Below are positions 23,420 to 57,545 of a stretch of DNA of 64,000 nucleotides, in pieces. Below the pieces are notes generated by a model. That model was not told the origin of the DNA. It did no database searches and saw only the letters and a list, made by a program, of their open reading frames with translations. Source of the stretch: Bacilli bacterium. GTDB lineage: Bacteria; Bacillota_I; Bacilli_A; RFN20; CAG-826. Both the position numbers and the translations under genes were made by a program. The stretch lies in NCBI GenBank assembly GCA_024408095.1, contig JAKSVI010000004.1:1546-65545 (forward strand). The letters are read 5' to 3'. Within the stretch, counting starts at the first letter, position 1; every line of letters begins with the position of its first letter.

Positions 23420-25369
23420 CTATTTTTTCTTTTTCTTTAAAATAATGCTGAGGCTTGCAATTAATCCTACAGACATAAAAGATAAGATGATAATAGTGAT
23501 TAGTGCACTTTCTGTATTACTTGTTAATGCTAAAAAATTATAAGAACTTTGATTGAATGAAATTCTATCACCATATGGTGTTGGATCATTATTTGCAACA
23601 GCCCAAGCTTCATAACGTGCTCTTGCTGATGCAACGAATGTATTATCACTTGTAGCAAACAAGATAAGATCTTCATCATCTAATTCACTAACTAACGCTT
23701 TGGTAGAGATATAATCAAGTGTGCAGTCGCCTTCGTCTCTTGTTGCTGAACCATTCCATGAGTTCATTTGTAGAGATGCAAACACATCTCTTAAATTACT
23801 AACAGAAAATGTTGGATCATTAATGACAGATGCAGAACAAGCCTTAACTCCAGTTAATTCTAATTTAATAGAAACTAAATCTTCTGGTTCGAAGTAAAAT
23901 TCAAATGGAATATCTGATGTTGTATAGTTAAATTCGTCAGATTCTTCAACTAATTTTCTGCCATCGCTATATGTGAAAGTAGCTACCAATTTGTTGCTGT
24001 TTGTATGGCCCGTTTCAGGAGAATATGCAGCAATTGTTCCTGATAATTTATCAAAAATCAAATCGGAAACAGGGAATTCATATGTAAAATCTTGATGGAT
24101 AAATAATCCGTTAACAGCGTGAACACTAGAGCCTTCACTATCTTGCATCATAAGTTCACTGCCCATCCAAGCAGTGCCACGAGCAGCTCCAAATGTATAA
24201 TCTGGGATTACAGAATCATATCCAAATAAACCATATAACTTTGTTGTCTCTCTAAAAAATTGAGCATTTGCAATAAATGTTGATCCATTGCCAAATCCAT
24301 TATCTGCAATAACTCTTAATTCAAATTCAGCAGAATCAGCTGGGATATCTATATTAACGATAAAGCCTGGATCTGTCTCTAAAATTTTTCCACTTGTATA
24401 AACACATAATCCATCTACATATCCTTCAACATGTGCTCCAGCGCATCCACTATGAAGTCCAATCAATGTGTTGAATAAACGAATATTTTTGTCTTCAATG
24501 TTGAATTTAAAAGAAACAAATAAATTATTATTTGTTTTGTCCGCTAAATATTGATCATAAGTAGCGTTTTTAAGGTGTACGCCAAAGCCTGTTTTTGACA
24601 TACACGGCATACCATATGGAGCGTATTGGCTGAATGGTTGTGCTTCAACATTTTTATCTAACATCGGGTATAAATATTGTGTTTGATTTGAGCCAGTAAT
24701 GAAGCTAAACCCTGATCCATTAGAACCAGTTAAACGTTCAAACATTTCTGATGCATTAATCTGATCACCTAATAAGTTATATAAACGTGGCTCTAGGAAT
24801 GCACATGTACCATTAGCGTAGCCCCATTCAGTTGCTTGAACACGTAATGTAAGTTTAGAACCACCAGCAATACGGCAACGTATAATCATTGGCTCGCCAT
24901 CATTATAAGTGGCACCAGCATTTGATCTAAAAAATACAAAATCTCTTTCCGTTCCATCAACTAAAACAGAGAATTTAAGCATATTGCTTCCTGCATCCAA
25001 AATTGCAACTTTTGCCTCAAAATATTCATATGCAAGTGATAAAGCAGAAATATCATATTCAATATCACCATCAGTGGAAGCTGGATCATTAAATGGATGC
25101 GTTCCGATACCTTTATTATATGTTTTGCCATTAACAATTAAGGGACCACCATCACATGCTTTATTGATGTTGACACTTGCCCAACCAGCAACTGGAGTAT
25201 TACTAAACGGAACAGTTGTAAGGTCTAATTCTTCTTCTATAACCTCATTTTCAGCATTACTCTGTATAACTGGAGCAACTTTAGATTCAGCTAATAAAGC
25301 TCCAGAAAACGCTAATCCTCCAACGAATAATGAGGTTATAAGTAATTTCATAAATTTATTTTTGTTCAT
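23420..25369 (-). CDS. membrane-anchored surface protein with NPCBM-like carbohydrate-binding module(s)
   Basis: 649 aa with an N-terminal signal (MKLLITSLFVGGLAFSGALLA) and an NPCBM-like signature (ACDGGPLIVNGKTYNKGIGTHP…DIEYDIS). A C-terminal hydrophobic helix followed by KKKKK serves as anchor; there is no LPXTG. Confidence 0.5.
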   Translation of the reverse strand: MNKNKFMKLLITSLFVGGLAFSGALLAESKVAPVIQSNAENEVIEEELDLTTVPFSNTPVAGWASVNINKACDGGPLIVNGKTYNKGIGTHPFNDPASTDGDIEYDISALSLAYEYFEAKVAILDAGSNMLKFSVLVDGTERDFVFFRSNAGATYNDGEPMIIRCRIAGGSKLTLRVQATEWGYANGTCAFLEPRLYNLLGDQINASEMFERLTGSNGSGFSFITGSNQTQYLYPMLDKNVEAQPFSQYAPYGMPCMSKTGFGVHLKNATYDQYLADKTNNNLFVSFKFNIEDKNIRLFNTLIGLHSGCAGAHVEGYVDGLCVYTSGKILETDPGFIVNIDIPADSAEFELRVIADNGFGNGSTFIANAQFFRETTKLYGLFGYDSVIPDYTFGAARGTAWMGSELMMQDSEGSSVHAVNGLFIHQDFTYEFPVSDLIFDKLSGTIAAYSPETGHTNSNKLVATFTYSDGRKLVEESDEFNYTTSDIPFEFYFEPEDLVSIKLELTGVKACSASVINDPTFSVSNLRDVFASLQMNSWNGSATRDEGDCTLDYISTKALVSELDDEDLILFATSDNTFVASARARYEAWAVANNDPTPYGDRISFNQSSYNFLALTSNTESALITIIILSFMSVGLIASLSIILKKKKK

Positions 25370-25440
25370 ATTGAACCTCCTTCTTCTTATGAAATATTTT
25401 GTAAATTGTTGTTCGGTAAATTTCTATAAATAACTCCTTT

Positions 25441-27585
25441 CTAACTTAATTTTTTTATTAAGATAACTGCAGCAGAAGCAGGATTATCAAGAATAATAGA
25501 ATATCCTTGTTTTAATGCTTTACCGCGTACTCTCGCTAATGTATTATTTCCATCTGTATCTGTTAAGGAATAATAAGCATCATCATCAATTCCTTGAACA
25601 TACACAGTTTGCGTTCTGTCTTTATTTTTTTCTTTTCTGAAAGCTTGAATAATTCCCTCACCAGATGTTGGGTCCATAAATTGGAATACATCCCAAGTTT
25701 TGTCATCACTAACATTGTGATATGGAGTTAATGGGTAATAATCTTTAGACAAATATTTATTGATCATGGCCCATTCTGCTTGACCACGTTTTACAACATC
25801 CCAGTCTAAATTCTTATTTTTAGAAAATTGTAAAGCATATGTCATAATTGGCGCATATGAAGCTCGCATGTTATACATACCAACTTTTCCATCGGACATT
25901 TCATTAACATAAACACCCGCTAATGGAAGCCATCTAAATGTCGCGTGAGAAAATGCTAAACGTAATGGCATACTATGGGGATGAACCATCGCCCAATCAG
26001 CATCACTTCTGTTGAATGGAAAACTATAACGCAAGGAAAGTAAATCGTTACGTCCACCACCCGATGCACAATCATCAATATAATTACATCCTCCAACACT
26101 TAATTGGGCATTTATAACTTCTTGCCATAATCTAAAGTGATTTTGAGTATATAAATTTTCAGTCATGCCTTTTCTATTTGGACCAGTAAAGGCATCATAA
26201 ACTGCCCATGAAGCAGCCGGTTCACCATTAAAATCTTCTCGATATAATCCAATTTTGTTATCGATAATCATGTTAACAACTCTGTTTTTAATCCATTGAT
26301 AAGCATCTTCTAATGCTAAATTAACGAAATTAAGTTCATTATTACCGTGTTCTGCAATTGCCCATCGACGATCAAAACCATAATTTCTAACTAAATCATC
26401 AAGATGTGTCACTCTTTCTGTTTCAAACCATAATTGAGTAAATTTACCTCTTTCTAAAGAGAAGTTGATGGTATCTTTAAATGTATTAGCGGGCCATTTC
26501 TTTCTGTCAACAGCCCATGTTCCTACATGTCCCCACCAATCTGTTGTTGTGGATTCGCCATTAGGGGATACATACCATCCAGCATCAATTAATCTGAAAT
26601 CAAAATCCATATTGTGATTTATAACTTGATTATAGGAATCCCTCCATGTTTCATATGTTTCAGAATCAGCATCATTAGTGGCTCCTTCTTTAATGTCTCT
26701 TTTTAAGAATACACCTTGAATAGAAGTAAACTTGCTACCATCACTATTTGTTGGGGCATTGCAATCCACATACCATCTTCTCCAAGCATTAATTGCAGTG
26801 TATTCATTTTGTTCGTAATATCTAACAATCCCGATAAGGGGAGACATTATTTGTTCACCTGGTTTTAAATATGAGGCAAAATCTAAGCAACCTTGTCCAA
26901 CAAAATTTGTTGTTTGACTATCTTTGTCATATAAAAATTTTGCACGATATGTACCTGGCCAGCCTATCGCTATCATTGCACCACCATCATCATTTGCTAA
27001 ATCATAATATGGGAATGTAACGTGAGTTGATCTACCAATAACGTTTTCATCTATAAAATCTTTTTTTGTTAAGTCAAAATCATACTCGGCGTATTGCTTT
27101 TCATGATCTCCTAATATTCCACGGATAAAGGCATTATTTCCCTTCAATAAATAATCAGCAGCATTGAAATTTTTGATTATTGGTGAGTTTTCACTAGCAC
27201 TATTTTTAATCCAAATAGTCCAGTCAAAGGCATCATAACCTTCATAATATGAAGTATCTAAAGTAATAACTAATCCATTTTTCATAGTCATTCTTATGAT
27301 GTGTTGTTCTTTTGGACTTAAATAATTTATTTTGTGTTCAATAACGGTAAAATATTTTTGTTTAAACCCACGATATCCAACATTTCCGCACATAAATGAA
27401 CATGGGAAATTCTCTAAGTTATTAATATATGAATCAAATTCTTTTCTAGATTCACCATTTTTCATGCTTGTTTCTCCTTCATTTATTGCCATAACAGATT
27501 TATTTTCTTTTATAGTCGAAACTCCTCCAATTGCGGTTGTTCCAATTAAAGAAAACAGGAATAAAAATAACAATGTTTTTTTCAT
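25441..27585 (-). CDS. exported GH36-like (clan GH-D) glycoside hydrolase, alpha-galactosidase/alpha-GalNAc-ase type
   Basis: 714 aa with an N-terminal signal. Catalytic-core motifs appear in the canonical order: FRLIDAGWY, LYREDFNGEP (nucleophile region, cf. KWDMN) and DDCASGGGRNDL (acid/base region, cf. GGGRxD). Confidence 0.6.
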   Translation of the reverse strand: MKKTLLFLFLFSLIGTTAIGGVSTIKENKSVMAINEGETSMKNGESRKEFDSYINNLENFPCSFMCGNVGYRGFKQKYFTVIEHKINYLSPKEQHIIRMTMKNGLVITLDTSYYEGYDAFDWTIWIKNSASENSPIIKNFNAADYLLKGNNAFIRGILGDHEKQYAEYDFDLTKKDFIDENVIGRSTHVTFPYYDLANDDGGAMIAIGWPGTYRAKFLYDKDSQTTNFVGQGCLDFASYLKPGEQIMSPLIGIVRYYEQNEYTAINAWRRWYVDCNAPTNSDGSKFTSIQGVFLKRDIKEGATNDADSETYETWRDSYNQVINHNMDFDFRLIDAGWYVSPNGESTTTDWWGHVGTWAVDRKKWPANTFKDTINFSLERGKFTQLWFETERVTHLDDLVRNYGFDRRWAIAEHGNNELNFVNLALEDAYQWIKNRVVNMIIDNKIGLYREDFNGEPAASWAVYDAFTGPNRKGMTENLYTQNHFRLWQEVINAQLSVGGCNYIDDCASGGGRNDLLSLRYSFPFNRSDADWAMVHPHSMPLRLAFSHATFRWLPLAGVYVNEMSDGKVGMYNMRASYAPIMTYALQFSKNKNLDWDVVKRGQAEWAMINKYLSKDYYPLTPYHNVSDDKTWDVFQFMDPTSGEGIIQAFRKEKNKDRTQTVYVQGIDDDAYYSLTDTDGNNTLARVRGKALKQGYSIILDNPASAAVILIKKLS

Positions 27586-27586: not shown

Positions 27587-28663
27587 TTATTTCACCCCAT
27601 ATTGAATGAGCTCTTTTAATCTATAAGAGAGCATCATATAGCTATAAGAAATATCATCAACAGAACTTGAGTCTGTATAAGTTTTAGCAATTTCAAGGCA
27701 CTTTTGCAGGGAAATATAAGAATTTTTTGTATATTTCGATTCATCAGTTATTTTCTCAGCTTCCCTAATTAACTGTTGTAATTCATCAAAAGTTTTTATC
27801 TCTATCAATTGATTAATAGCATCATTTAATTGTTTATATGTTTCGTTAATAATTATTTGATTTTTACCATAAGCTTTAACTTCTCTAGCAAAATTTAAAA
27901 CCGTTTGGAAATCTTCCCATGATTTAGGTGTATATTTATCTTTATTGTATGTATCTGCAGTATTTATTAAATTAGTTAGTGCAGTATTATCTATCTTAAA
28001 AGATGGGGATGTAATTGTTATATTTCTAACTTTTGAAGGACATTTAAATGCACGAATGCCCACTAATCCAGCTTTGTCTCCAATATTATAAGAAAATAAA
28101 GGATTATCATAATCATTATTAATATATGTTGTAACAATGCCATTTTTAACTAAACAGCTTAAATGAATCCATTCAGCGTTCCAAAATGGAAGGTCAGAAG
28201 CTTCTATGTATTGTCCTTTCCAGCTGCCACCACTAAATTTATATAAACGTAAATCCCAGTTTGGTGTATTCTCATCATGTTTAATACAAACCTGCCAAGC
28301 ATTAATATGATCAACTTCAGAGCTTGGAGAATCGGCTTGTAAATAAAAACCTGTATCAATATGACCTTTATAAATAATTGGTGCAAAGTCGGCTTCAATT
28401 AAATATTCCGTTAATTTAACATCCCTTAAAATCAATTTATTTTCTGCATAAATATAAGAGAACATTGAATGATCATAAAAACGTGGTAGAGCATTATATG
28501 AAGTGTATGTATCAAAACGGCTTAAGTCATCTACGTTATCAAAATCAAAAGATATTGTTCCACCATCAATTAATTTATCAACTGAAGCATTAGAAGGGTT
28601 AGTTTTCATCAGAAAACCTCCAGATAAAAACGATATAAGTAAAGGCAATATTATAAATTTCAT
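27587..28663 (-). CDS. exported ConA/LamG-like jelly-roll protein with FIVAR-like helical repeats
   Basis: 358 aa with a signal peptide and a beta-sandwich core (…WIHLSCLVKNGIVTTYINND…GLVGIRAF). C-terminal repeats are YTPKSWEDFQTVLNFAREV and YTKNSYISLQKCLEIAKTY. Confidence 0.5.
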   Translation of the reverse strand: MKFIILPLLISFLSGGFLMKTNPSNASVDKLIDGGTISFDFDNVDDLSRFDTYTSYNALPRFYDHSMFSYIYAENKLILRDVKLTEYLIEADFAPIIYKGHIDTGFYLQADSPSSEVDHINAWQVCIKHDENTPNWDLRLYKFSGGSWKGQYIEASDLPFWNAEWIHLSCLVKNGIVTTYINNDYDNPLFSYNIGDKAGLVGIRAFKCPSKVRNITITSPSFKIDNTALTNLINTADTYNKDKYTPKSWEDFQTVLNFAREVKAYGKNQIIINETYKQLNDAINQLIEIKTFDELQQLIREAEKITDESKYTKNSYISLQKCLEIAKTYTDSSSVDDISYSYMMLSYRLKELIQYGVK

Positions 28664-30873
28664 CTAACGGCCTCCACTACAAACGAAGAAATTGTAACTT
28701 TATATCCAATTAAATCAGTCTGAGAAGAACGCATTGCGCAGAAATGGAATCCAATAAAATCTCCACCTTTGCATTCAAATGTCCATGTTGTTAAATCTGG
28801 AGATAATTCGTTTGATTTATCTTCTGCACCATTAGTTAACCAACGATAGAAGATAAAGGAAGTTTTGTCGTTATCACCTTCAATTTTGTAATTTAAAGTG
28901 AATCTATATGTTTTATCCATTTCAAAGTTGAATGGTTCCCAGGCAACTGGATTAGAACCATCTCTTTTCATTGTGAATATTCCGTTTTGGCAAACAGATG
29001 GATTTTTAGCGTGATCTTGTTCAGCGTTATATGGTTCGTAAACCAAAACATTATGTCCATCGACCATACCTAAACTAGACATTTTGGTGTCTTGAGTAAT
29101 TGTGTAATTTAACGAAGAACCGCAAGCATCCCATGGCCACACATTAGTTGTGTTGAAGTCATCATAGAAAATATTTGTTGTGTTAGTAATTGTAAATGTT
29201 AATTGATTTCCAATATTGGTATCAATTTTAAAAGTGGTTGTTCCATATAATGTGATTAAGGCGTTATTTTGAATGACTAAACCATCATTTTCAAATGAAA
29301 AGTCATTTTTACTAACTTCTTGACCGTCTTTATTTGAAACATCATATTGATTAGATCCATATTTAGTAACTTTTGTTATATAAGCATTATCAAATGTTCC
29401 TGATAATTTTACAGAACTTTCTTTTCCAGTAACTGTTTTAGATGTTTCAGTCAATATTGCAGTTCCATTAATTGTGACTGTTAACGTTGCTTTAACATCT
29501 CCAATTGAGGTGGCAAATACTAATTCATGCACTCCAACAGATAAATTATTCATAACAGAACTTGGAATGGTGAAACTATCATCTTTTAATGTGGCTTCAG
29601 TAACTTCATTGCCATCTAAAAGTAAATCATATTTCCATCCATGAGCATTTATAGTTCCTACATAATCTCCGCTATCTTTCTTATAGTCAGGAAGATTTAT
29701 AATTTCTAAACAATCTGTAACTTCAGAAACTCGGAAATTGTCAAGCAATAAATAGCCACTACCACGGAGCCATTTAGCATAAATAAATGTACCTGATTGA
29801 ATTTGATTTCCAGTTAAAATAACCGAGAAATGATGCACTTTATTATCATTTTCTGGTCCCATCAATAATGGCTCTTGATATGTAAATGGAGCGCCCCAAT
29901 CAGTAATAGTAGCGAAGCAGAAAGTTTGTCCAGTCACATTAGAACTTCCAATAGTTTCATAGTCAAAACTAATAGAATATATTTTGTCTCTAACATAACC
30001 AACTTTATACCAGCTCATAGTGGTTAAAGCGTCACCTAATGTCATTATTGAATTGCAATCAAGTTCAACTTCTACATTGTTTGGTACATATTTTAATGCA
30101 TTGCCAACCATTCCGTAACTTTCTGCGTTTACGATTTGAACAGATTCAGTTGTGGCATATTGGTAAAGAGGGTTCGCTCCATATATTGAAACAACGTCAC
30201 TATGTATAGTAGTTAAATCGTAATCGGTGAAGAATAAAATATCAGAGCTGACATTAAATTTATAAACATCATGGTTTGATAATGTTAATACAAATTCACT
30301 AGTGCCATAGCAATGATCTAAGACCTCACTTGATAAAGTAAATGTATTATCAGCATATGAATAATAAGTAGAAGGAATTGTTATTCCGCCTTTAGTTAAA
30401 GATGTAATAGTCGCAATTGAGAAATCGCAATCGTATTTAAGATCACCAGTTTTACCAAATGTATATTTCTTTGTAGCAGTGTCAAATCTTGTTTTAACAG
30501 AATTCATAACCTCAATATTTAATACAGATGGTTTAACTTCTTCGTCATAATAAACAGTTAATGTGTAATTACCTTTATCAACAGTTGACATATATGATTC
30601 TTTAATAGCTAAAACTTTTTTATCACTTTCATATTTAGCTTGTTTTGCAGATAATAAATAATCTTCGAAGTAACAGGCGTATATATTTACTCCATTAAGT
30701 TCGACCGGCATCTCTAAATCATTAGCTGCGTTTTTATCATACGAATATGAATCTTTAGAAAATACAGGAATGCCTGGATCTGGTTTTGGAGGAACAGGAG
30801 GATTTGTTGGATTATTATTACAGCCCACCAAGAATAGTGAAACTAACATTAATGGTAAAAAAATCTTTTTCAT
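28660..30873 (-). CDS. large surface lipoprotein, multiple beta-sandwich modules, no catalytic motif recognised
   Basis: 737 aa with lipobox LFLVGC. First gene of the AraC-adjacent operon. ATGA overlap with the next gene. Confidence 0.5.
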   Translation of the reverse strand: MKKIFLPLMLVSLFLVGCNNNPTNPPVPPKPDPGIPVFSKDSYSYDKNAANDLEMPVELNGVNIYACYFEDYLLSAKQAKYESDKKVLAIKESYMSTVDKGNYTLTVYYDEEVKPSVLNIEVMNSVKTRFDTATKKYTFGKTGDLKYDCDFSIATITSLTKGGITIPSTYYSYADNTFTLSSEVLDHCYGTSEFVLTLSNHDVYKFNVSSDILFFTDYDLTTIHSDVVSIYGANPLYQYATTESVQIVNAESYGMVGNALKYVPNNVEVELDCNSIMTLGDALTTMSWYKVGYVRDKIYSISFDYETIGSSNVTGQTFCFATITDWGAPFTYQEPLLMGPENDNKVHHFSVILTGNQIQSGTFIYAKWLRGSGYLLLDNFRVSEVTDCLEIINLPDYKKDSGDYVGTINAHGWKYDLLLDGNEVTEATLKDDSFTIPSSVMNNLSVGVHELVFATSIGDVKATLTVTINGTAILTETSKTVTGKESSVKLSGTFDNAYITKVTKYGSNQYDVSNKDGQEVSKNDFSFENDGLVIQNNALITLYGTTTFKIDTNIGNQLTFTITNTTNIFYDDFNTTNVWPWDACGSSLNYTITQDTKMSSLGMVDGHNVLVYEPYNAEQDHAKNPSVCQNGIFTMKRDGSNPVAWEPFNFEMDKTYRFTLNYKIEGDNDKTSFIFYRWLTNGAEDKSNELSPDLTTWTFECKGGDFIGFHFCAMRSSQTDLIGYKVTISSFVVEAVR

Positions 30874-30977: not shown

Positions 30978-31901
30978 ATGATTGATGCCTTTAAATATCC
31001 AAAAAAACTTCCATTATCCGAAAAAATATTATGGGAATATAATGATTGTTTTGCCGATAGACCGACAAAAAAACTATGTTTTGCGTTCTTACATCAAAAC
31101 TATAGTATGGATATGCATAAACACGAATTTTATGAAATAAACGTAGTAGTAAGTGGAACAGGTGTCCATTATAGTAAATTAGGTTCAAAAATAGTAAAAA
31201 GAGGGGATGTATTCATAATTCCTCCAAATGCTCTTCATGGATATTATAGTTATGACCATTTGAATGTCTGGCACGCTTTATTTCAAGAATCATTCTTTAC
31301 TAGATATTCAAATGATTTGAGCCTAGCTTCCTCATACCAAATTTTATTTGACACTAATAGAAACAATGTTGAAAGATATCCTATTAAAATAGAATGTAGT
31401 AACCAACTATCATTTAATGAATTAGAATCATTAATTAAAAAATTAACTGATTCATTAAATTTGGAAGAATCATATCAAGTACAAAATATTGAATACGTTA
31501 GATCTTATTTATGTGGACTAGAGTTAATTATAAAGCTCTGTGAACTATACGAAAATAAAGGGACTATATTCGGCCCTAATATTGAACAAAACAATAAAAT
31601 TTATAGTTGCATGGCTTATTTCCATACTAATTATAACAAAAAGATAGATATAAATGAGCTTTGCAAAATAGCGTGTATGTCTCGTACTTTGTTATTTAAA
31701 GAATTTAAAAGGGTTACAGGTTTAACTCCTAACGACTTCCTAAATGATTATCGTATGAAAATCGCGAATAAGCTTCTTCAAGAAACAGATTTATCTATAA
31801 ATGAGATATCATCGCAAGTTGGTTATTATGATTCGTCTCATTTTGAAAAAATGTACAAAAGATATTTCAACACTATTCCAAAGAAAAATAGAACTTACTG
31901 A
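30978..31901 (+). CDS. AraC family transcriptional regulator (cupin sensor + HTH)
   Basis: 307 aa with an N-terminal cupin-type AraC_binding region (HKHEFYEINVVVSGTGVHY) and a C-terminal double HTH (…CMSRTLLFKEFKRVTGLTPNDFLNDYRMKIANKLLQETDLSINEISSQVGYYDSSHFEKMYKRYF). Divergent from the 30873 operon. Confidence 0.9.
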   Translation: MIDAFKYPKKLPLSEKILWEYNDCFADRPTKKLCFAFLHQNYSMDMHKHEFYEINVVVSGTGVHYSKLGSKIVKRGDVFIIPPNALHGYYSYDHLNVWHALFQESFFTRYSNDLSLASSYQILFDTNRNNVERYPIKIECSNQLSFNELESLIKKLTDSLNLEESYQVQNIEYVRSYLCGLELIIKLCELYENKGTIFGPNIEQNNKIYSCMAYFHTNYNKKIDINELCKIACMSRTLLFKEFKRVTGLTPNDFLNDYRMKIANKLLQETDLSINEISSQVGYYDSSHFEKMYKRYFNTIPKKNRTY

Positions 31902-33956: not shown

Positions 33957-33957
33957 A

Positions 33958-44371: not shown

Positions 44372-44536
44372 AATGCACACGCAAATAGCCACCTTGCTTT
44401 CCTTTCTTTTTCTGGCTATGCAATTAAGGGTTAAACACATTCCAAAACAAATTCAAACGATATTGTCTGTATGTATGTGTTTCTTAATCTTATTTTACTT
44501 ACACACGTGTGTGTTTTCAGTATTAATTTACTTTTT

Positions 44537-44554
44537 TTTCGATTATTTTGAAAA
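44537..44554. promoter_or_regulatory. degenerate copy of the ATTCGA-N6-TCGAAT palindrome
   Basis: TTTCGA-TTATTT-TGAAAA, 12 nt from the perfect site. The spacer is identical to the one at 57617-57634. Confidence 0.3.
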
Positions 44555-44565
44555 GCATATTATTT

Positions 44566-44583
44566 ATTCGATAAAATTCGAAT
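44566..44583. promoter_or_regulatory. candidate operator ATTCGA-TAAAAT-TCGAAT upstream of the GLUG-protein operon
   Basis: Perfect 6+6 inverted repeat in the 430-bp intergenic region, about 195 nt upstream of ATG 44371. The same palindrome occurs at 53978 and 57617. Confidence 0.55.
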
Positions 44584-44800
44584 GTTTAATGCGAATAAAC
44601 CATATAGGTTTACAATTTTTATTTGATTCAATCGAAATAATTTATACATATAAAATTAAAATTTATTTTATAATAAATTGCAAGTGTCTTTAAGATATAT
44701 GAAAAAATTACATAAATTTTAAATTCAAAAACCTATAAAAGCTTTAAAAATTAGTAAAATAGTCCAAATGAAAACAATAAATCGAAAATATTAAAACAAG

Positions 44801-50598: not shown

Positions 50599-51495
50599 TT
50601 AATGTTTGCTCCCCGATAACATAAAAGTATTAACAAAGTGTTTTTGGAAAATAATATAAATTAATAAAGTTGGTATTGAAGATAATACACTTGCAGACAT
50701 AACTTCTGGTAAGTGCAATAATGAATCGCTTCCGCCAGAGCCTGTGCTTAAATTTCTAATAACAATTTGTAGTGTCTGAGATTCAGCTTTATTTAAGTAA
50801 ATGTCAGGTCCAAAGAAGTCGTTCCAAATACCTAAGAACCAGAAAATTACTTGTGCAAATAATGCTGGTTTAATTAAAGGAAGGAACAATTCAAAATAGG
50901 TTCTAAAGAAACCTGCTCCATTAATTTCAGCGGCTTCATATATTTCATTAGGAATAGTGTCTGCGTATTGCTTAATAAAGAATAACATTGAGACATTTCC
51001 GAATAATCCAGGAATGATTAATGGCAATAATGTGTTGATCATTTTTAGTTTTGCAAACACTAAATATTGAGGTGCCAAAACAGCAATATACGGAATCATC
51101 ATTCCGGTCAATAACATATAAAATAGTACGTTTTTGCCGAAGAAATTGATTCTTGAAAACGCATAACCTGCTAATGTTGTTACAAAGGTCCCAATGATTA
51201 AAACAAAGAATTCAATAATAAATGTATTTAGGAATCCTCTACCAATCATGATGTTCTCATCAGTAAAAATTGTGATGTAATTATTAAAAGTAAATTCTTT
51301 AGGAATTAAATAGAAAACAGCACTATTGTTGATAACTTCATCAGCAGTTTTAAAAGAAAGAGAAAGCATATATAAGTAAGGGAAAATCATGATAAAAGCG
51401 ACAATGACTAATATGAAAATAGCCAAAACTTTCAAAGTATAAAATTTGGTTTCACCTAATATATGTTTTCTTTTTCTTTGAGCAAGCGTTTCCAT
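50599..51495 (-). CDS. carbohydrate ABC transporter permease (MalG-like)
   Basis: 298 aa with 6 TM helices and EAA loop YEAAEINGAGFFRTYFELFLPLIKP. Confidence 0.9.
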   Translation of the reverse strand: METLAQRKRKHILGETKFYTLKVLAIFILVIVAFIMIFPYLYMLSLSFKTADEVINNSAVFYLIPKEFTFNNYITIFTDENIMIGRGFLNTFIIEFFVLIIGTFVTTLAGYAFSRINFFGKNVLFYMLLTGMMIPYIAVLAPQYLVFAKLKMINTLLPLIIPGLFGNVSMLFFIKQYADTIPNEIYEAAEINGAGFFRTYFELFLPLIKPALFAQVIFWFLGIWNDFFGPDIYLNKAESQTLQIVIRNLSTGSGGSDSLLHLPEVMSASVLSSIPTLLIYIIFQKHFVNTFMLSGSKH

Positions 51496-51498
51496 ATA

Positions 51499-52386
51499 TT
51501 ACCTTACTGCTTTCTTTCCTCTCGAATTCAAATAGAATTGGAGAAGTGTAACAACAAATAAAAGTCCAAAGACAAAAATTGCTCCTGCAGCGACTAGACC
51601 ATATTCGCCACGTTTAAAACAATCATACAAATAATAAACAATCGTCTGAGATTCACTGCTTGCAACAATAACATAGTTATCTGCAAACGCCATAATACCA
51701 CCAATAATTCCAGTGACTAATAAGTAGAATGATGTTCCATTGACTAAAGGAATAGTTATATGAAACATCTTTTGAATAGTATTAGCTCCAGCAATATCTG
51801 CTGCTTCATACATATCTAAAGATATATTTTGAATAGAAGCATAATAAAGTAACAGTGTTCCACCTAATCCTCCCCATACACCTTTCATGATAAGGGTTAT
51901 TTTGACTACAGAAGGATCGCTTAACCAGTGAACGTTAGTGTGAAAAATAATGTTGATGGCACCATATTGACCATTAAATAACCATTTCCAAACAACTCCA
52001 ATAGCAACAGCGGAAGTAACTGCAGGTAAATAATAGAGAATCAAGTAGGGTTTTTTTGCTTTAACAAATTTTGAATTAATTAATGTCGCTAATAAAAAAG
52101 CAAAAAGCATTCCTATAGGAATACCTAACATTAAGAATAATGTATTGGTGATAGATTTAATAAATTTTTGATCTTCAAATAAAACTTTGAAATTTTGAGT
52201 GCCAATAAAATATTCTGGAGAAGTATCCCAATATCCTTCCGTCATATCATAGAAAGAACCTTGAATCGTTTTAATTAAAGGAATTAAGGTAAAAATAACG
52301 AAACCAACGACCATTGGCAAAATTAAACAATAGCCGATTAGATTATTTTTAACTTTCTTAGATAAACGGTTTCTTTTGGCCCTCAT
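51499..52386 (-). CDS. carbohydrate ABC transporter permease (MalF-like)
   Basis: 295 aa with 6 TM helices and EAA loop YEAADIAGANTIQKMFHITIPLV. Confidence 0.9.
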   Translation of the reverse strand: MRAKRNRLSKKVKNNLIGYCLILPMVVGFVIFTLIPLIKTIQGSFYDMTEGYWDTSPEYFIGTQNFKVLFEDQKFIKSITNTLFLMLGIPIGMLFAFLLATLINSKFVKAKKPYLILYYLPAVTSAVAIGVVWKWLFNGQYGAINIIFHTNVHWLSDPSVVKITLIMKGVWGGLGGTLLLYYASIQNISLDMYEAADIAGANTIQKMFHITIPLVNGTSFYLLVTGIIGGIMAFADNYVIVASSESQTIVYYLYDCFKRGEYGLVAAGAIFVFGLLFVVTLLQFYLNSRGKKAVR

Positions 52387-52389: not shown

Positions 52390-53892
52390 TTACCAACTAT
52401 ATTTATTAGCGTAATCGTTTAATTTGACTTGGACACTACCTTGTAGAGAGTCTAAGAAGGAGTTATTGATACGTGATTTTGTTGACCAATCCCAAACATC
52501 AATATGTCCGCCATATTGTCTGTCATTATGGAATACTCTATATAATTTTAAAGAATCGTTTGCGGATTCCCACATTTCTTGACTCCATTTATCATTATAT
52601 GTATATGAAGCAGGACGTCTTTTTGAATTCTCTGCAATATCAATATAAACTTGCCTATTTAATGGACGGTTTAATCCTTTGCCATCATCTAATGTAGCAG
52701 TTAAGAATTCGCCTTTTGCCATATCTTTCAAGTTAGGAAGGGCTTGACCCATTTTATAGTTAATGCGTTGAGCTTCCTGATTCACTGTTAAGAATTCTGC
52801 TAATTCATAGGCGGCTTGAGGAACACCAGTTGTTTTACAAACAGCAATTCCAACACTACCTAGATATGATTGAGTAGTACAACCACTTCTTGGGGCATCT
52901 TTCCAGTCATCTTCTTTTTCAAGACTGCCACTTTGGTTTGGAACTGGAGTTGGTAATACATCCCAATCAAAATTACATCTCCACATTTCAGGGAGCTTAT
53001 AGAAATCAATGAATGATGAGGAAGCTAGTCCACTAATGAATCTACTATAACCATCTTGGCCACCGCCACCTTGGTCTTCAGCAGCAGTCATAACATTGAA
53101 TTTTAATGCTAAATCAGCGACAAATTGCAAAGATTCGGCAAATTTATCATTCGCAATTGTTGATATTTTTCTAGTTGAATCAGTAAAGTCTCCGCCTGCT
53201 GTAAAGTATGCAGTTTCAAGAGGATAATGTGTTATACCAACTATTGAATCATGATCTTTTGGATCTCCGGTTTGTGTATCCTTACAAAATCTAATAAATT
53301 GCGCCCATGTCATTGGGGTAGATTGATAAACGGTTTTGGTGTTGGCATCATAACCATATCCATTTGGAGATGTTTCAGAAGAGATTGTGATACCTTTTTT
53401 TAAAGCGTTTGTTTTGTTATATGTTAATGCAATTGGTCCAACATCTTTTGGTAAAGCATACAAATCGCCTGTGCCTAAACGTTTATTAGCGGCATCAAAT
53501 CTATATGCATTTAATCCTTCAAACCACACATTATCTGTTGAAAATGTTTTTGATGCTTCAATAAAAGGAGTTAAGTTCATCATTACGTTATTTCTGCTAT
53601 TAGCCCATTCAATAAAATTGGTGTCTGGCATATAGAAAACATCAGGCATCGTATCTGATTGACGTTTTGTTAATAAAGCATTCATATAAAGTTCTGACGA
53701 AGAGCTTTCATAGTGAACATCGTATTCTGGATGTATTTCTTTAAATTTTGCAATCATTGCATTGAAAACAGCTTTTTCTTCCGCAGATCCCCAACCAAAG
53801 AAATTAATCAAAGTTTTTGATGGGTCTCTTTTGTTTGCGCCACAAGAACACAAAGCCAAAAAAGGCAAAAAGAGCAAATATAGTTTTTTCAT
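52390..53892 (-). CDS. extracellular sugar-binding lipoprotein (ABC substrate-binding protein, family 1)
   Basis: 500 aa with lipobox FLALCSCG. First gene upstream of the two permeases. General family-1 SBP sequence character. Confidence 0.75.
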   Translation of the reverse strand: MKKLYLLFLPFLALCSCGANKRDPSKTLINFFGWGSAEEKAVFNAMIAKFKEIHPEYDVHYESSSSELYMNALLTKRQSDTMPDVFYMPDTNFIEWANSRNNVMMNLTPFIEASKTFSTDNVWFEGLNAYRFDAANKRLGTGDLYALPKDVGPIALTYNKTNALKKGITISSETSPNGYGYDANTKTVYQSTPMTWAQFIRFCKDTQTGDPKDHDSIVGITHYPLETAYFTAGGDFTDSTRKISTIANDKFAESLQFVADLALKFNVMTAAEDQGGGGQDGYSRFISGLASSSFIDFYKLPEMWRCNFDWDVLPTPVPNQSGSLEKEDDWKDAPRSGCTTQSYLGSVGIAVCKTTGVPQAAYELAEFLTVNQEAQRINYKMGQALPNLKDMAKGEFLTATLDDGKGLNRPLNRQVYIDIAENSKRRPASYTYNDKWSQEMWESANDSLKLYRVFHNDRQYGGHIDVWDWSTKSRINNSFLDSLQGSVQVKLNDYANKYSW

Positions 53893-53977
53893 AAGCTTAA
53901 CCTCTTGCTTTAATTCTATATTATGTTAAAAACATACACAATTGCCATTTTTCAATATATTAAAAAAATACTTTATT

Positions 53978-54006: not shown

Positions 54007-54939
54007 ATGAAAGAATCTAGAAATGTCCATTTAAGCGTTAATGATAATGATCAATTAGAGAAAATTGGAGACAGTTTTTCTTCTGGTTACAGAAGAAGAA
54101 TTTTATTTTTACTATCAAAAAGAAGTTACTCAACTCAAGAATTATTGGACGAACTAAAGATTTCTCCTTCCACTCTTTCATTTCACTTAAAAATATTAAG
54201 AGAGGCGAAGCTTATTAAGTTTGTTAAAGCACCATCAAAACGAGGAAATGAGAAAAATTTATCATTAAATATTGACTCGCTTGTAGTGAATTTTGATTCC
54301 ACTACTGCGAATAATGTTAAAACAGAAAACATCGATATCGGCCTTGGAAGCTTTTCTAAATTTGAAGTAAAGGCGCCTTGTCTTATAGCAACAGAAAATG
54401 AAATATTACAGCCAATTGATAATGATGTCATTTTTAATAGCACCGATAAAATAAAGGCTCAATTAATTTCTTTTACAGAAGGTTATATCGAATATCTAGT
54501 TTCGAATGATTTGCTATATTTTTCTAAAATTAAAGAGCTATCATTTACTCAAGAAATATGTAGTGAGTGCCCAAACTTTAATAATAATTGGAAAAGCGAC
54601 ATTTCATTCTATTTGAATAATATTAAAATTGGTGAATTCCTTTCTTTGGGTGATTACGGCGGAAGATTAGGATTATTTTCACCGCAATGGTGGCCTACTA
54701 ACTCATCTAATTATGGAATATTAGTAAATGTCACAATTAATGATGATGGCACTTTTATTAATGGCAAAAAAACTAGTGACTTAAAAATCAATGAGTATTT
54801 CAAAGAAGAAAAAATTATTAAATATAGGATTGGCGTCGATCACAACAGCAAACACCTTGGTGGTATAAATATTTTTGGCAGACACTTTGGTGATTTTAAA
54901 CAAAATATTTCGTTAAATATAACTTATATTGATAAATAA
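54007..54939 (+). CDS. ArsR-type winged-HTH regulator with ~210-aa uncharacterised C-terminal domain
   Basis: wHTH RRRILFLLSKRSYSTQELLDELKISPSTLSFHLKILREAKLIKF. Start taken as ATG 54007 (MKESRNV…) rather than 53923, because the extra 28 aa are hydrophobic AT-rich read-through. No clear SD at either start. The C-terminal domain is not recognised. Confidence 0.65.
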   Translation: MKESRNVHLSVNDNDQLEKIGDSFSSGYRRRILFLLSKRSYSTQELLDELKISPSTLSFHLKILREAKLIKFVKAPSKRGNEKNLSLNIDSLVVNFDSTTANNVKTENIDIGLGSFSKFEVKAPCLIATENEILQPIDNDVIFNSTDKIKAQLISFTEGYIEYLVSNDLLYFSKIKELSFTQEICSECPNFNNNWKSDISFYLNNIKIGEFLSLGDYGGRLGLFSPQWWPTNSSNYGILVNVTINDDGTFINGKKTSDLKINEYFKEEKIIKYRIGVDHNSKHLGGINIFGRHFGDFKQNISLNITYIDK

Positions 54940-54940: not shown

Positions 54941-55798
54941 TTACGATAAGAAATCTTTTCTTAATTTTAAACCACAATCATATATTCTCTTAAGTTGCTT
55001 TTTAAATTCGTCCATACTTTCAACATTTAAAAGTGGGATCGTTTCAAAAGTGAAATCACCTTGATAATTTATTTTTTTAAGTGCTTTTATTATTTCGTCA
55101 AAATCAATCATTCCATCACCAGGTAATAAATGTTGATCATGGTGTTTGTCATTGTCGTGAATATGTAGGCATTTTAATCGTGGGCCCAATGAATTTATCA
55201 TCTCCACTGCGCTTGTATTTAAGCCTTTCATTTCGGCATGTCCAATATCGACAATTGCACATGCGAAATCGTCATTTATTAAGTCTAACAGATGAACAAA
55301 ATTCTTGTGATTTGAGCAAGAAGCAAGACAAGCATGATCATTTTTCTCATCCCAATTCCACATATTCTCAATTGAGACTTTTATATGAAATTTATGGCAA
55401 AACGGCAATATTTTTTTAAAATATGCAGAATTGTATTCATCATCATAATCGTTTAAAGGATGGACAACACAATAGTCTGCTCCTAATATTGAACTAACCT
55501 TAAGGCTTCTAATTAGTAGCTTGTATTGGCTTTGAATTTTAGCCTTAGAAAAAGATGGATGCTCAATCGGAAAAGGGGAATGAGTTTGATTACATTTCAT
55601 TTCTAATTTATCTGCGAATTTTCGTAAAGTTTTTGCTCTTTTTATATAATCTCTTTTGTCGATAAATTGATCATAACATCCATCGTTATTACACATAGTA
55701 AAATCATATGTGTCAAAGCCAACTTCCTTCATGGCGGTCAGTATATCGTATATACTTCTATTTTTAAATTGTAAGGTATGGCAAGATATTCTATACAT
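54941..55798 (-). CDS. sugar phosphate isomerase/epimerase (xylose isomerase-like TIM barrel)
   Basis: 285 aa with motifs KVSIENMW, VDIGHAEM and CLHIHDND typical of the AP_endonuc_2/xylose-isomerase-like fold. No signal peptide. Confidence 0.75.
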   Translation of the reverse strand: MYRISCHTLQFKNRSIYDILTAMKEVGFDTYDFTMCNNDGCYDQFIDKRDYIKRAKTLRKFADKLEMKCNQTHSPFPIEHPSFSKAKIQSQYKLLIRSLKVSSILGADYCVVHPLNDYDDEYNSAYFKKILPFCHKFHIKVSIENMWNWDEKNDHACLASCSNHKNFVHLLDLINDDFACAIVDIGHAEMKGLNTSAVEMINSLGPRLKCLHIHDNDKHHDQHLLPGDGMIDFDEIIKALKKINYQGDFTFETIPLLNVESMDEFKKQLKRIYDCGLKLRKDFLS

Positions 55799-57545
55799 TA
55801 TTTTTATTAATTTCTTCTAAAGTTTTTATATCAAATTTGGGTTGTCTATTAAAAGTAAATAGGCCGTTAACTTCTTGATAAACATCAGTAAGTTGAGTAA
55901 CACACCAGCCAGCTATATTTGGAGCAGTCGAGGCACATTTGATTAATCTTCTATATCTATCTATTAATCCATCTTTATCTTTTACTGAATCTCCATAACC
56001 CCACCCATTTTGAACAGTTTCAACATTAAAGCCAATACCACAAAATTCATCTAATAAAATAGGTTGTCCCTCATATTTAAATCCGTTAGCAAAAGGAGTG
56101 AATTTAGCAATAGCGTCGTTAATACACGTGTTATTTTTACAAATTTCTAAAATATTCTCAGTGTAATATCTTAATTTTTCATCATCTTGTATGTAATTAT
56201 GGAATGTCACTAAATCAGTCTTGCAATGGAGCCAACCATCATTAGAGATAACTAATCTAGTGGGATCAAATCTTTTGGTAAAATCATATATTTGAACGAG
56301 AAAATCCTGTTGTTCTTTACTTGTTCGAATACCGGGAATTCCCCAAGATTCATTAAATGGAGTCCACACTAAGATAGAAGGGTGATTAATATGTTGAACT
56401 AATATTTCTTGCCATTCTCTTAGTATGTTTTCTTTTAGTTCATCATCAAAATCATATCCACTTGGCATTTCGCTCCAAGTAATAAGACCAACTTGGTCAC
56501 ATAAATAATAGAATCTATCATCTTCTACTTTCTGATGTACTCTTAAACCATTAAATCCACTATTTTTGATTAGCTCTATTTCTTTTATCATTTCTGCATT
56601 ATTCTCAAAAGTATATATTCCTTTTGGATAATAGCCCTGCTCTAAGATTAATTTCATAAATAAAGGCTTGCCATTTAATAAAACTTTGCCATTTTCAGTT
56701 TCTATAAATCTATATCCAAAGTAACTAGAAACTTCATCAATCACTTCTCCATTTTTAATTAGTTTTAATTTAACAGAATATAAATTTGGATTTTCAGTAT
56801 CCCAAAAGTGTATTTCATTTAAAGGTACATTTGTTACTAATTTTTCATTACCAAAACGAACTAATTTTTGTGCGACTAATTTGTCTAAAAACAAGAAATT
56901 TATTTCAATTTCCCCTTCAAAACTAAAGTTATTTAACAAAATTGACACATCTACAGAATTATTTTTATTAGGAATGAATTGGAAGAAAGTAATATAAGTG
57001 CTTCGTACAATTTCAGCCCAGACTGATTTCCATATTCCATTAACTTCTTGATAAAAACATTCGAAAGGTTTGTCTTTCCATTTTTGTTTACCGCGAGGTT
57101 GATGAATGCTATATGAATCGTCGCATCTAATTACAACATTTCCTTTTTTCTCAATAAGATAGTCAGTTATATCGAAACAAAAAGAAGTGTAACCACCTAA
57201 GTGCTCTCCAACAAACTTACCATTAACATAAAGTTTTGTTTTATAGTCAGCAGCATCTATATGAAAAAGGACTCTTTCATTTTCTTTATAATCGAAGCTA
57301 ATTTCTTTTTGATAGTAAATGGTGTCATAATGAGTTTTATCGTTTATTCCGCTGAGCTCACATTGATAACAATATGGAACATTTATTTTCAAACAATCTT
57401 TAGGGAACTCAATGAATCTCTGATCGTGTTCATATATTCTCTTGTCATCGACATAAAAATTCCACTCACCATTTAAATTAAGAAATGAATTTCTTACAAA
57501 AAGTGGTCTAGGATAATCCGAAATTATTTTCGACAAATCTTTCAT
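55791..57545 (-). CDS. glycoside hydrolase family 2 (beta-galactosidase/beta-glucuronidase/beta-mannosidase type), cytoplasmic
   Basis: Start trimmed to ATG 57545 (MKDLSKIISDYPRP…). Sugar-binding domain NGKFVGEHLGGYTSFCFDIT. TIM barrel NGLRVHQKVEDDRFYYLCDQVGLITWSEMP. Acid/base region HPSILVWTPFNESWG. Confidence 0.85.
   Translation of the reverse strand: MKDLSKIISDYPRPLFVRNSFLNLNGEWNFYVDDKRIYEHDQRFIEFPKDCLKINVPYCYQCELSGINDKTHYDTIYYQKEISFDYKENERVLFHIDAADYKTKLYVNGKFVGEHLGGYTSFCFDITDYLIEKKGNVVIRCDDSYSIHQPRGKQKWKDKPFECFYQEVNGIWKSVWAEIVRSTYITFFQFIPNKNNSVDVSILLNNFSFEGEIEINFLFLDKLVAQKLVRFGNEKLVTNVPLNEIHFWDTENPNLYSVKLKLIKNGEVIDEVSSYFGYRFIETENGKVLLNGKPLFMKLILEQGYYPKGIYTFENNAEMIKEIELIKNSGFNGLRVHQKVEDDRFYYLCDQVGLITWSEMPSGYDFDDELKENILREWQEILVQHINHPSILVWTPFNESWGIPGIRTSKEQQDFLVQIYDFTKRFDPTRLVISNDGWLHCKTDLVTFHNYIQDDEKLRYYTENILEICKNNTCINDAIAKFTPFANGFKYEGQPILLDEFCGIGFNVETVQNGWGYGDSVKDKDGLIDRYRRLIKCASTAPNIAGWCVTQLTDVYQEVNGLFTFNRQPKFDIKTLEEINKNNV

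Follow-up and report, generated by a model that had tools for sequence, protein, structure and literature searches.

A modular, membrane-tethered Gram-positive-type polysaccharide utilisation locus in a gut Bacilli genome, probably directed at arabinofuranoside-rich plant glycans

The Firmicutes arabinan systems, such as abnEFJ-abnA-abnB of Geobacillus stearothermophilus and araNPQ-abfA with MsmX of Bacillus subtilis, combine a CUT1 ATP-binding cassette (ABC) importer, an extracellular GH43 glycosidase, a cytoplasmic furanosidase, an MsmK/MsmX-type ATPase and a nearby AraC-family regulator; AbnE belongs to AbnEFJ, the arabinosaccharide uptake system of the G. stearothermophilus L-arabinan regulon. 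The Gram-positive polysaccharide utilisation loci (gpPULs) of Roseburia, Eubacterium and Ruminococcus co-localise carbohydrate-active enzymes (CAZymes) with an ABC transporter and a transcription factor, and their extracellular enzymes are cell-attached and multi-modular. Both sets of features are found in a 20-gene locus, with a solute-binding protein that resembles PDB entry 6RJY, at positions 23420-57545 of the window analysed here, a stretch of 64,000 nucleotides from contig JAKSVI010000004.1 of an uncultured gut Bacilli bacterium known as a metagenome-assembled genome (GC content about 31%). We read this locus as a modular PUL of the Gram-positive type, most likely for arabinofuranoside-rich plant glycans (pectic arabinan, or arabinogalactan- or gum-type side chains), a reading that we hold with modest confidence, somewhat better than even.

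The core of the locus matches a known kind, the arabinoside-type Gram-positive PUL, and two of its four transcription units (a and b, defined below) have the look of a variant Firmicutes arabino-oligosaccharide system. CAZymes with intact catalytic motifs (GH43, GH36 and GH2), a CUT1 transporter, regulators and modular co-conservation are all present. However, the predicted intracellular furanosidase is GH2_19-like rather than GH51, the GH43 is a DUF1080 lipoprotein whose nearest relative is an exo-arabinofuranosidase rather than an endo-arabinanase, the 20 genes include no araABD, and an ArsR-like regulator stands in place of AraR. Beyond what the arabinan systems have, it carries about 6,000 additional residues of lectin and repeat proteins at the surface, together with a GH36/NPCBM unit, an SGNH esterase and a metallophosphoesterase (MPE). 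Compared with the gut gpPULs, it uses lipid or transmembrane (TM) anchors instead of sortase/LPXTG or cohesin-dockerin attachment, its content of non-catalytic surface protein is unusually large, and its regulator belongs to an ArsR-plus-extra-domain family rather than being of the LacI, AraC or two-component type. What is new in the locus is LPXTG-free membrane tethering, the very large lectin/repeat load, a GH2_19-type enzyme in the role of GH51, a divergent exported GH36 triad, and a cassette of a LamG-metallophosphoesterase (LamG-MPE) and an ArsR-like regulator with a predicted operator.

The gene map is based on six-frame open reading frames (ORFs) and inspection of start sites, with domains assigned by Pfam (Table 1; genes are numbered g01 to g20). 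It bears out the layout proposed in a first-pass annotation made from the letters of the sequence: 18 of the 20 genes lie on the minus strand, leaving only the AraC gene g05 and the ArsR-like gene g18 on the plus strand, and they form four units, a (g20-g19), b (g17-g12), c (g11-g06) and d (g04-g01). Neighbouring genes of a unit are -8 to +71 nt apart; wider breaks fall between units b and c (429 nt, 44372-44800) and at the two convergent/divergent regulator junctions. Revised likely starts give 424 aa for g10, 885 aa for g11, 682 aa for g06 and 310 aa for g18. Almost all of the domain calls of that annotation were reproduced by Pfam, which found NPCBM, Melibiase, CBM_X2, AraC, Laminin_G_3 with Metallophos, Flg_new, Big_3 with SGNH, ABC_tran/OB_MalK/TOBE_2, GH43 with 3keto-disac_hyd (DUF1080), CBM9, two BPD_transp_1, SBP_bac_1, HTH_5, AP_endonuc_2 and GH2. 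Its estimate of about 8,500 exported residues compares with 8,483 counted here, and its view that every exported protein is lipid- or membrane-anchored also stands: lipoboxes occur in six proteins (g04, g09, g10, g13, g14 and g17), each exported protein that lacks one has an N-terminal signal or anchor segment, and LPXTG is absent from every one of the 20 locus proteins. The terminator-like hairpin of Table 1 follows g01, the last gene; promoter and terminator consensus scans gave counts not above shuffled expectation, and no tRNA genes were found. Exact database matches to window proteins are MCQ2814911, MCQ2814913, MCQ2814916, MCQ2814920 and MCQ2814929 (locus tags MJ227_01265 to MJ227_01300). 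For comparison, 93 loci of relatives from herbivore, bird and human guts (L numbers below) were reached through homologues of g07, g11 and g02, and all 20 proteins were compared with their ORFs.

Table 1. Genes and other sequence features of the locus (positions in the 64,000-nt window).
Feature	Position	Strand	Basis and remarks
Intrinsic-terminator-like hairpin, end of unit d	23368-23393	-	GGCGCC-N8-GGCGCC followed by T6, read from sequence
g01, NPCBM (CBM51-related) protein	23420..25369	-	NPCBM at 2e-16; signal peptide, C-terminal TM anchor
g02, exported divergent GH36 glycosidase	25441..27585	-	Melibiase, 31.9 bits (cut-off 27)
g03, 358-aa exported protein	27587..28663	-	weak FIVAR-like segment
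g04, CBM_X2 lipoprotein	28660..30873	-	Pfam and lipobox; conserved GH36 partner
g05, AraC-family regulator, divergent from unit d	30978..31901	+	Pfam
g06, 682-aa exported protein with internal duplications	31917..33965	-	no Pfam match
g07, exported LamG + metallophosphoesterase	33958..35769	-	Pfam, AF2, Foldseek
g08, Flg_new (Listeria-Bacteroides repeat) + DUF1080-like surface protein	35772..37727	-	Pfam
g09, lipoprotein with Big_3, DUF1080-like domains and C-terminal SGNH esterase	37729..40380	-	Lipase_GDSL_2 at 5e-15
g10, 424-aa lipoprotein with concanavalin/DUF1080-like domains	40389..41663	-	weak DUF6250 and LamG matches
g11, 885-aa membrane-anchored protein, GLUG-type repeat C-terminal half	41714..44371	-	visible repeats
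Operator-like palindrome TTCGATAAAATTCGAA	44567..44582		429-nt gap upstream of unit c (g11)
g12, MsmK/UgpC-type ABC ATPase	44801..46372	-	Pfam and NCBIfam; 523-526 aa
g13, surface GH43 lipoprotein with C-terminal DUF1080/LamG domain	46387..48831	-	GH43 at 2e-28
g14, CBM9 + DUF1080-type lipoprotein	48846..50597	-	CBM9_1, 3keto-disac_hyd, lipobox; putatively glycan-binding
g16 + g15, two CUT1 ABC permeases	50599..52386	-	BPD_transp_1 twice
g17, CUT1 solute-binding lipoprotein, AbnE-like	52390..53892	-	SBP_bac_1 and lipobox
Operator-like palindrome TTCGAAATTATTCGAA	53979..53994		g17/g18 divergent intergenic region (unit b and regulator)
g18, ArsR-type winged helix-turn-helix (wHTH) regulator	54007..54939	+	HTH_5 at 5e-13; ORF opens at 53923, likely start 54007
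g19, xylose-isomerase-like TIM-barrel enzyme	54941..55798	-	Pfam AP_endonuc_2 at 3e-26
g20, cytoplasmic GH2, furanosidase group (GH2_19-like), 584 aa	55791..57545	-	Pfam GH2 N-terminal, middle and C-terminal domains
Operator-like palindrome TTCGATTATTTTCGAA	57618..57633		upstream of g20, 73-88 nt from its start; a TATAAT stands just upstream of the palindrome

The best clue to the substrate is the solute-binding lipoprotein g17 of unit b. Its best PDB match is 6RJY, entered as 'Arabino-oligosaccharids-binding protein' (E 2e-39 over residues 26-443, 418 residues, the next match being at 7e-10), and binding of arabino-oligosaccharides is predicted from this remote homology; a literature search on 6RJY found nothing relevant. 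The two permeases g16 and g15 match NCBIfam models of the UgpA/UgpE, GlcT/GlcU and MalF/MalG types, all below cut-off. The surface GH43 lipoprotein g13 has its closest PDB structure in 4QQS, an alpha-L-arabinofuranosidase of Halothermothrix orenii, and its catalytic motifs DP, ID and EGP are all there; homologues share 59% identity in L092 and 32-35% in L006, L024, L088 and L089, and are directly preceded by g14 homologues in L024 and L092. A metagenome scan with the GH43 returned one locus only, and no exact copy of the protein turned up in public assemblies. The ATPase g12 had been called MsmK-like, which holds for its type, but its 523-526 aa exceed the standard MsmK of about 370 aa; it carries a Lys/Arg-rich N-terminal extension of about 55 aa and a helical insert of about 130 aa between OB_MalK and TOBE_2. 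Homologues are 51-61% identical in L001, L006, L022 and L092, and the long form (516-560 aa in relatives, with ORFs of 771-800 aa in L024 and L059) always lies between the GH43 and the surface cassette of unit c in the six loci L001, L006, L022, L024, L059 and L092.

Unit a supplies the putative intracellular steps. The GH2 subdivision published in 2025 defines a group III (GH2_18/19), the furanosidase group, with alpha-L-arabinofuranosidase as well as beta-D-galactofuranosidase (Galf-ase) activities; it places PDB entry 7XYR in GH2_19, a subfamily of which only about 10% of members are secreted (PMC12243196). The best PDB match of g20 is 7XYR (E 6e-97), followed by 7SF2 and by 9J6N (1e-60), a Streptomyces beta-D-galactofuranosidase. 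By these alignments g20 is a predicted GH2_19-like enzyme of furanosidase group III; it has no N-terminal signal peptide and, unlike 7XYR, retains the NE acid/base motif and the nucleophile Glu in the alignment. Its gene overlaps that of g19 by 8 nt. The sole PDB match of g19 is the uncharacterised MJ1311, and its NCBIfam matches to epimerases, isomerases and CbiR are all weak and below cut-off; assignment as a CbiR-like phosphodiesterase was rejected, the match (31.5 bits against a cut-off of 105) being too weak to use. An oxidative 3-keto-glycoside pathway, called to mind by the TIM barrel together with several DUF1080 (3keto-disac_hyd) domains, was likewise discarded: the likeness lies in domain names only, the DUF1080 domains of the locus being extracellular appendages of binding proteins and the GH43 whereas the TIM barrel is cytoplasmic, and no Gfo/Idh/MocA oxidoreductase was found in the 20 genes or 10 scanned flanking genes.

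Unit d centres on g02, earlier described as GH36-like, which proves to be a genuine though divergent member of the family. A single-sequence PDB search with g02 gave no match, whereas the profile of its 32-member family reached LaMel36A (2XN0) over its full length at E 5e-44, and its AF2 model (pLDDT 89) superposed on GH36 alpha-galactosidases in Foldseek (TM 0.70-0.73). Profile, superposition and conserved motifs together assign the GH36 fold and mechanism. With the subgroup I enzymes (LaMel36A; AgaA/AgaB, 4FNR/4FNQ; SpAga, 6PHU), g02 shares the three-domain fold (TM about 0.7), the nucleophile (Y-R-E-D-F-N against Y-I-K-W-D-M-N) and the CxxGGGR and SDxD motifs; it differs in being about 15% identical, in being exported rather than cytoplasmic, and in the family consensus DAGW (D334, A335, G336, W337) that replaces the canonical DDGW. 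Because of this replacement, alpha-galactosidase specificity is not assured; candidate specificities are alpha-Gal, alpha-GalNAc and beta-L-Arap. Unlike in subgroup I, the g02 gene invariably follows those for a CBM_X2 lipoprotein and a 358-aa protein: g04 homologues occur in L089, L090 and L091, the g03 homologue is always sandwiched between those of g04 and g02, and the constant core of unit d in these three loci is a regulator, a g04-like CBM_X2 protein, g03 and the GH36. An equivalent divergent AraC gene is found in L089 (58% identity) and L090. The fourth protein, g01, is 47% identical in L089; its C-terminus, a hydrophobic helix followed by KKKKK with no LPXTG, resembles a sortase sorting signal minus the motif, and such a motif-less tail fits a lineage that tethers all its surface proteins in the membrane. 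Unit d would add the removal of alpha-Gal or beta-L-Arap caps, and the combination is that expected for arabinogalactan, gum or pectic side chains.

Overall, the 6RJY-like binding protein, the GH2 of the furanosidase group, the arabinofuranosidase-like GH43 and the GH36 point to an arabinan/arabinogalactan-type substrate. The first-pass statement that the enzyme set matches no textbook substrate was therefore too strong, the four proteins pointing to arabinofuranoside-rich glycans with alpha-Gal or beta-L-Arap caps, while the gpPUL logic it described (tethered binding and degrading proteins, CUT1 importer, cytoplasmic finishing enzymes, regulators) is supported. In the mechanism that we propose, tethered lectin-domain proteins (CBM9, DUF1080/LamG, CBM_X2, NPCBM, Flg_new, GLUG) would hold the polymer at the cell surface, where the GH43 and the exported GH36 would take off arabinofuranosyl residues and alpha-Gal or beta-L-Arap caps. 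The SGNH esterase would then remove acyl groups, and the LamG-MPE may remove or cleave a phosphoester decoration. Oligosaccharides would be taken up by the AbnE-like CUT1 importer, powered by the long MsmK-type ATPase, and their breakdown completed in the cytoplasm by the GH2_19-type furanosidase and the putative TIM-barrel isomerase/epimerase. Units a, b and c would be controlled by g18 through the palindrome TTCGA-N6-TCGAA, and unit d by the divergent AraC regulator. What the analysis shows is the gene content, the assignment of domains and folds, the intactness of catalytic motifs, the synteny with relatives and the common palindrome, whereas the substrate, the order of steps, the palindrome-binding protein and the phosphoesterase activity are inferred.

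The regulator g18 shares its wHTH with ArsR/SmtB regulators, and its profile matches many ArsR structures over the N-terminal ~90 residues only. Whereas those regulators have a small metal- or redox-sensing architecture of about 100-120 aa, members of the g18 family measure 300-330 aa and have a conserved C-terminal domain of about 200 aa with the motifs SLEICSE, SPGDFGGRRG and GGFNIFGK, for which no PDB sequence match was found. At E<=1e-30, a set of 1.84 billion representatives yields 177 clusters of this family (50% identity). The 64 kb of the window hold exactly three copies of the 16-nt palindrome TTCGA-N6-TCGAA, where 0.02 would be expected (0 of 100 shuffles reached three), and these copies lie upstream of units a, b and c, from which we infer that g18-type regulators bind such palindromes and that the three units would form one regulon under g18. 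The unit-a and unit-c sites have a longer context in common, TTATTTATTCGAT...TTCGAAT. About 15 nt from the perfect unit-c site, at 44537-44556, lies a degenerate second copy, TTCGATTATTTTGAAA, which suggests tandem binding sites. The AraC/g04 intergenic region has no TTCGA-N6-TCGAA site. At the equivalent junction of ArsR-like and solute-binding protein genes, L089 carries the near-identical ATTCGAATAAAGTTGAAT; in other lineages the same 5-N6/7-5 layout stands next to g18 homologues with different half-sites in 16 loci, as CTACA...TGTAG in 5 and GTTGA...TCAAC in 11. A promoter-like string common to L088 (~7600-7640) and L089 (~11905-11935), AACTTATAATGAAAGT, lies upstream of the first structural gene after the ArsR-like regulator; it could be a promoter that has been conserved, or else another regulatory element.

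Comparison with the relatives argues for functional linkage of the units. The 16-kb locus L092 joins units b, a and c in one tight co-directional array, g14-GH43-GH2-ATPase-g11-g10-g09-g08-g07, with identities of 48% for g14, 59% for GH43, 36% for GH2, 60% for the ATPase, 44% for g11 and 55% for g07. Units d, a and b are adjacent in L089, where a leftward AraC gene is followed by rightward g04, g03, g02 and g01, leftward ArsR and GH2 genes (ArsR before GH2 in the direction of transcription), and rightward genes for the solute-binding protein, two permeases and GH43. Similarly, L088 combines two permeases, GH2, ArsR and GH43 (a and b), and L024 has units b and c in the order of the window: two permeases, CBM9-like, GH43, ATPase, DUF1080, Flg_new, LamG-MPE. 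In L001, L006, L022 and L059, GH43 and/or the long ATPase are followed by the cassette (b and c). Each junction in the window is thus matched in one or more relatives whose arrangement differs, which favours functional linkage over chance assembly. The units had been required to be co-conserved and co-regulated if they form one system, and they recur as modules, with a shared palindrome before a, b and c; the 20 genes travel together as such modules and not as one fixed block.

Several points weigh against the reading of the locus as an arabinofuranoside PUL. The substrate is predicted from remote homology, with GH43, GH2 and GH36 matches at about 15-40% identity and g17 roughly 25-30% identical to 6RJY (an estimate, no identity being printed with the match). 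Apart from 4QQS, the PDB matches of g13 at E<=1e-3 are uncharacterised GH43s and include no arabinanase; the 20 genes include no endo-arabinanase-type GH43, and a scan of these genes and of 10 flanking ones gave neither GH51 nor araA/B/D domains. Galactofuranose (Galf) glycans stay a rival substrate, since beta-D-galactofuranosides are likewise substrates of GH2 group III and of certain GH43 enzymes, and no arabinan or arabinogalactan is known to require a phosphoesterase. On the regulatory side, g18 is only the presumed binder of the palindrome, and the exact palindrome is missing from the intergenic regions of the other loci, its six exact matches there all lying inside coding ORFs. Finally, CUT1 permease homologues occur within 10 kb in only ~6 of ~50 LamG-MPE loci, and most cassettes elsewhere have neither a GH nor a sugar transporter nearby, so that unit c may have an independent role.

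Unit c is a surface cassette built around the LamG-MPE g07, which recurs together with a Flg_new/GLUG surface protein and the ArsR-like regulator in more than 40 loci of gut Firmicutes. For g11 there is no Pfam match, and the earlier 'MucBP-like' label is unsupported; GLUG repeats are weakly upheld by an NCxNxG...GGIxG periodicity, by PF07581 in a homologue (P0088, one of only 6 database proteins found by homology search) and by a weak Glug match in the L002 homologue. The lipoprotein g10 is a paralogue of g09 and g14, and in g09 all four SGNH blocks (GHS, GIGGS, GIND, DGLHP) are intact. At relaxed Pfam thresholds nothing usable emerged for g04, g06, g11, g03 or g10. The LamG-MPE family comprises about 80 clusters at 90% identity, from Bacilli/Mollicutes-labelled, Christensenellaceae and other Clostridia gut metagenome-assembled genomes (MAGs), often with several copies per genome. 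Counted within 10 kb of the LamG-MPE in the 42 loci that have 5 kb or more of upstream sequence, a g18-like regulator is present in 31 of 42 (g18 homologues also adjoin GH2/GH43/GH36 modules), an ORF with Flg_new repeats in 38 of 42, and a g11-like GLUG protein or DUF1080-type protein also in 38 of 42. In 27 of the 42 the Flg_new ORF either directly adjoins the LamG-MPE or forms a fusion with it, g11-like ORFs occur in 21 of the 42, and g06 is kept after the LamG-MPE in L001, L002, L008-L010 and L093. As most copies lack a nearby GH or transporter, and those of L002 and L008-L010 lie among housekeeping genes, the cassette is an autonomous unit that has repeatedly been recruited beside GH43/ABC modules.

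It is a further step, and in our view a doubtful one, to suppose that unit c and its g18-type regulator serve a role other than catabolism of the unit-b glycan, such as adhesion to host or particles or phosphate/nucleotide scavenging, and stand beside the PUL only as a fellow accessory surface function. This would suit the arrangement ArsR <- g11, g08, g07, g06 with no GH in L002 and L008-L010, the cassette's own g18-like regulator, its paralogous copies within Christensenellaceae and Clostridia MAGs, a protein mass that is mostly lectin/repeat domains without catalytic sites, and a Bmp-type ABC transporter adjacent in L002. However, one and the same palindrome precedes units a, b and c in the window, a gap of only 30 nt separates GH43-GH2-ATPase from the cassette in L092, the order GH43/ATPase/cassette recurs in L001, L006, L022, L024 and L059 at 33-60% identity, DUF1080-type domains are common to the cassette, the GH43 and the CBM9 protein, and a Cohnella homologue consisting of the MPE only sits in a sugar ABC/NanE locus.

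Other cassette contexts may be recorded here. The cassette lies near ribosomal protein operons in L001 and L002, and it abuts an IS110 transposase in L001 and a PhdYeFM/ParE toxin-antitoxin pair in L093. L007 (GCA_965348995.1) encodes at 10001-13120 a 1,039-aa fusion of the LamG-MPE to Flg_new repeats, neighboured by genes for AraC, a GH78 rhamnosidase, a CUT1 transporter and an ADP-ribosylglycohydrolase-family protein, a different glycan context. L050 (CAVDSZ010000003.1, a 146-kb contig labelled Akkermansia muciniphila) holds a full-length LamG-MPE with a g11-like neighbour, either as a mis-binned Firmicutes contig or through horizontal transfer.

The chemistry of g07 bears on a second alternative. 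Its Metallophos domain scored 32.4 bits (cut-off 21.5), a single-sequence PDB search with the catalytic domain gave no match, and Foldseek with the AF2 model (pLDDT 88.5) retrieved purple acid phosphatases, Lmo2642 and Rv0805 (probability 1.0) as well as pentraxins, generic relatives only. The family is invariant at D281, Q283, D317, N351, H352, H439, H488 and Q515, with the motifs GD (316-317), GNHD (350-353), H439 and GH (487-488). Like the extracellular MPEs (purple acid phosphatases, Lmo2642, Rv0805, UshA-type 5'-nucleotidases, PhoD), g07 has the MPE fold, and its metal site 2 is canonical (D317, N351, H439, H488). Its motif I, however, reads D-I-Q (Q283), and Q515 seems, from alignment position only, to replace the last His, so that invariant Gln apparently stands in for each of the two site-1 His (site residues D281, Q283, Q515); Gln has a precedent as metal ligand in UshA. 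It differs from these enzymes also in its N-terminal LamG/pentraxin-like domain, in the lack of any close sequence or structure match, and in its obligatory pairing with Flg_new/GLUG surface proteins.

PhoD, a metallophosphoesterase-fold enzyme, degrades teichoic acid, and the target of the locus might on such grounds be a microbial envelope glycan with beta-D-galactofuranose and phosphodiester links: a teichoic-acid-like or pellicle-type polysaccharide from neighbouring Gram-positive bacteria, fungal galactomannan, or phosphomannan. In that case the galactofuranosidase role would fall to the GH2_19 and GH43, cleavage of the phosphodiesters to the LamG-MPE and removal of O-acetyl groups to the SGNH enzyme. 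Galf-ases do occur in GH2 group III, with 9J6N among the matches of g20, an exported metallophosphoesterase and esterase are conserved beside GH43, GH2 and ATPase, and small-genome gut Bacilli are plausible scavengers. We nevertheless judge this unlikely: the sole strong relative of the binding protein takes arabino-oligosaccharides, the nearest characterised relative of the GH43 is an arabinofuranosidase, the Foldseek matches of g07 show neither PhoD-like nor GpdQ-like specificity, its metal site 1 departs from the usual pattern (D-Q-D-Q), and a literature search found no link of such a cassette to phosphoglycans. We put forward only tentatively, and with low expectation, that the cassette may be an unrecognised and widespread extracellular glycan-processing module of gut Bacilli MAGs, Christensenellaceae and other Clostridia, cleaving phosphodiester or phosphomonoester decorations of glycans as a 'phosphoesterase arm' of Gram-positive PULs, under a new ligand-sensing ArsR-type family acting on lineage-specific 5-N6-5 palindromes. 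The Cohnella homologue, which is cytoplasmic and encoded in a sugar ABC/NanE/two-component locus, is a weak hint at a sugar-phosphate substrate for the MPE; a literature search on LamG-metallophosphoesterase glycan systems or cassettes found nothing relevant.

We hold it very unlikely that the 34 kb came together by chance, through mobile elements in a variable region of the chromosome, from pieces of unrelated PULs with a different substrate each. In favour of such a mosaic are the UPF0236 transposase on the left and the Fic, Schlafen/AlbA_2 and AAA_14 genes on the right, the transposase and toxin-antitoxin neighbours of the L001 and L093 cassettes, and unit d, which has a different regulator (AraC), lacks the palindrome and in ~50 loci never falls within 10 kb of a LamG-MPE homologue. 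Against it, each pair of neighbouring units recurs, rearranged, in at least one independent relative (L088, L089, L092, L024), as expected of functionally linked units, and the operator is common to units a, b and c.

The flanks themselves show the following. The immediate left neighbour of the locus is the UPF0236-family (ISLre2-like) transposase gene (21901-23160, plus strand), and the right flank (57734-63382, minus strand) consists of successive genes that resemble those of defence systems or mobile elements: Fic/DOC with a Penicillinase_R-like HTH, Schlafen/AlbA_2 with HATPase_c_4, AAA_14 with DUF4143, and an archaeal-type ATPase_2. With the elements beside L001 and L093, the region resembles a variable island. 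Farther left, ORFs of 1,307 and 1,219 aa (243-4166 and 4184-7843, minus strand) followed by small ORFs recall rpoC/rpoB and ribosomal protein genes by size and layout alone. At 19134-21766 (minus strand), a 396-aa F420-0:gamma-glutamyl ligase-like protein, the domain split over its whole length, stands beside an FAD-dependent protein and is unexpected for a gut Bacilli genome.

Uncultured small-genome Bacilli and the Christensenellaceae are common in the gut, and very little is known of their carbohydrate ecology. The locus offers a concrete model of how such Bacilli may feed on plant glycans, fully membrane-tethered, with no sortase motif and with an AbnE-like importer, and it isolates three uncharacterised pieces: the LamG-metallophosphoesterase cassette, the exported GH36 clade with its two fixed partners, and the ArsR-like family with its predicted operator. 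If the phosphoesterase does not act on glycans, the locus would amount to an ordinary PUL of the arabinoside type that has an unusually high number of binding proteins; if it does, the enzyme repertoire expected of PULs would be extended.

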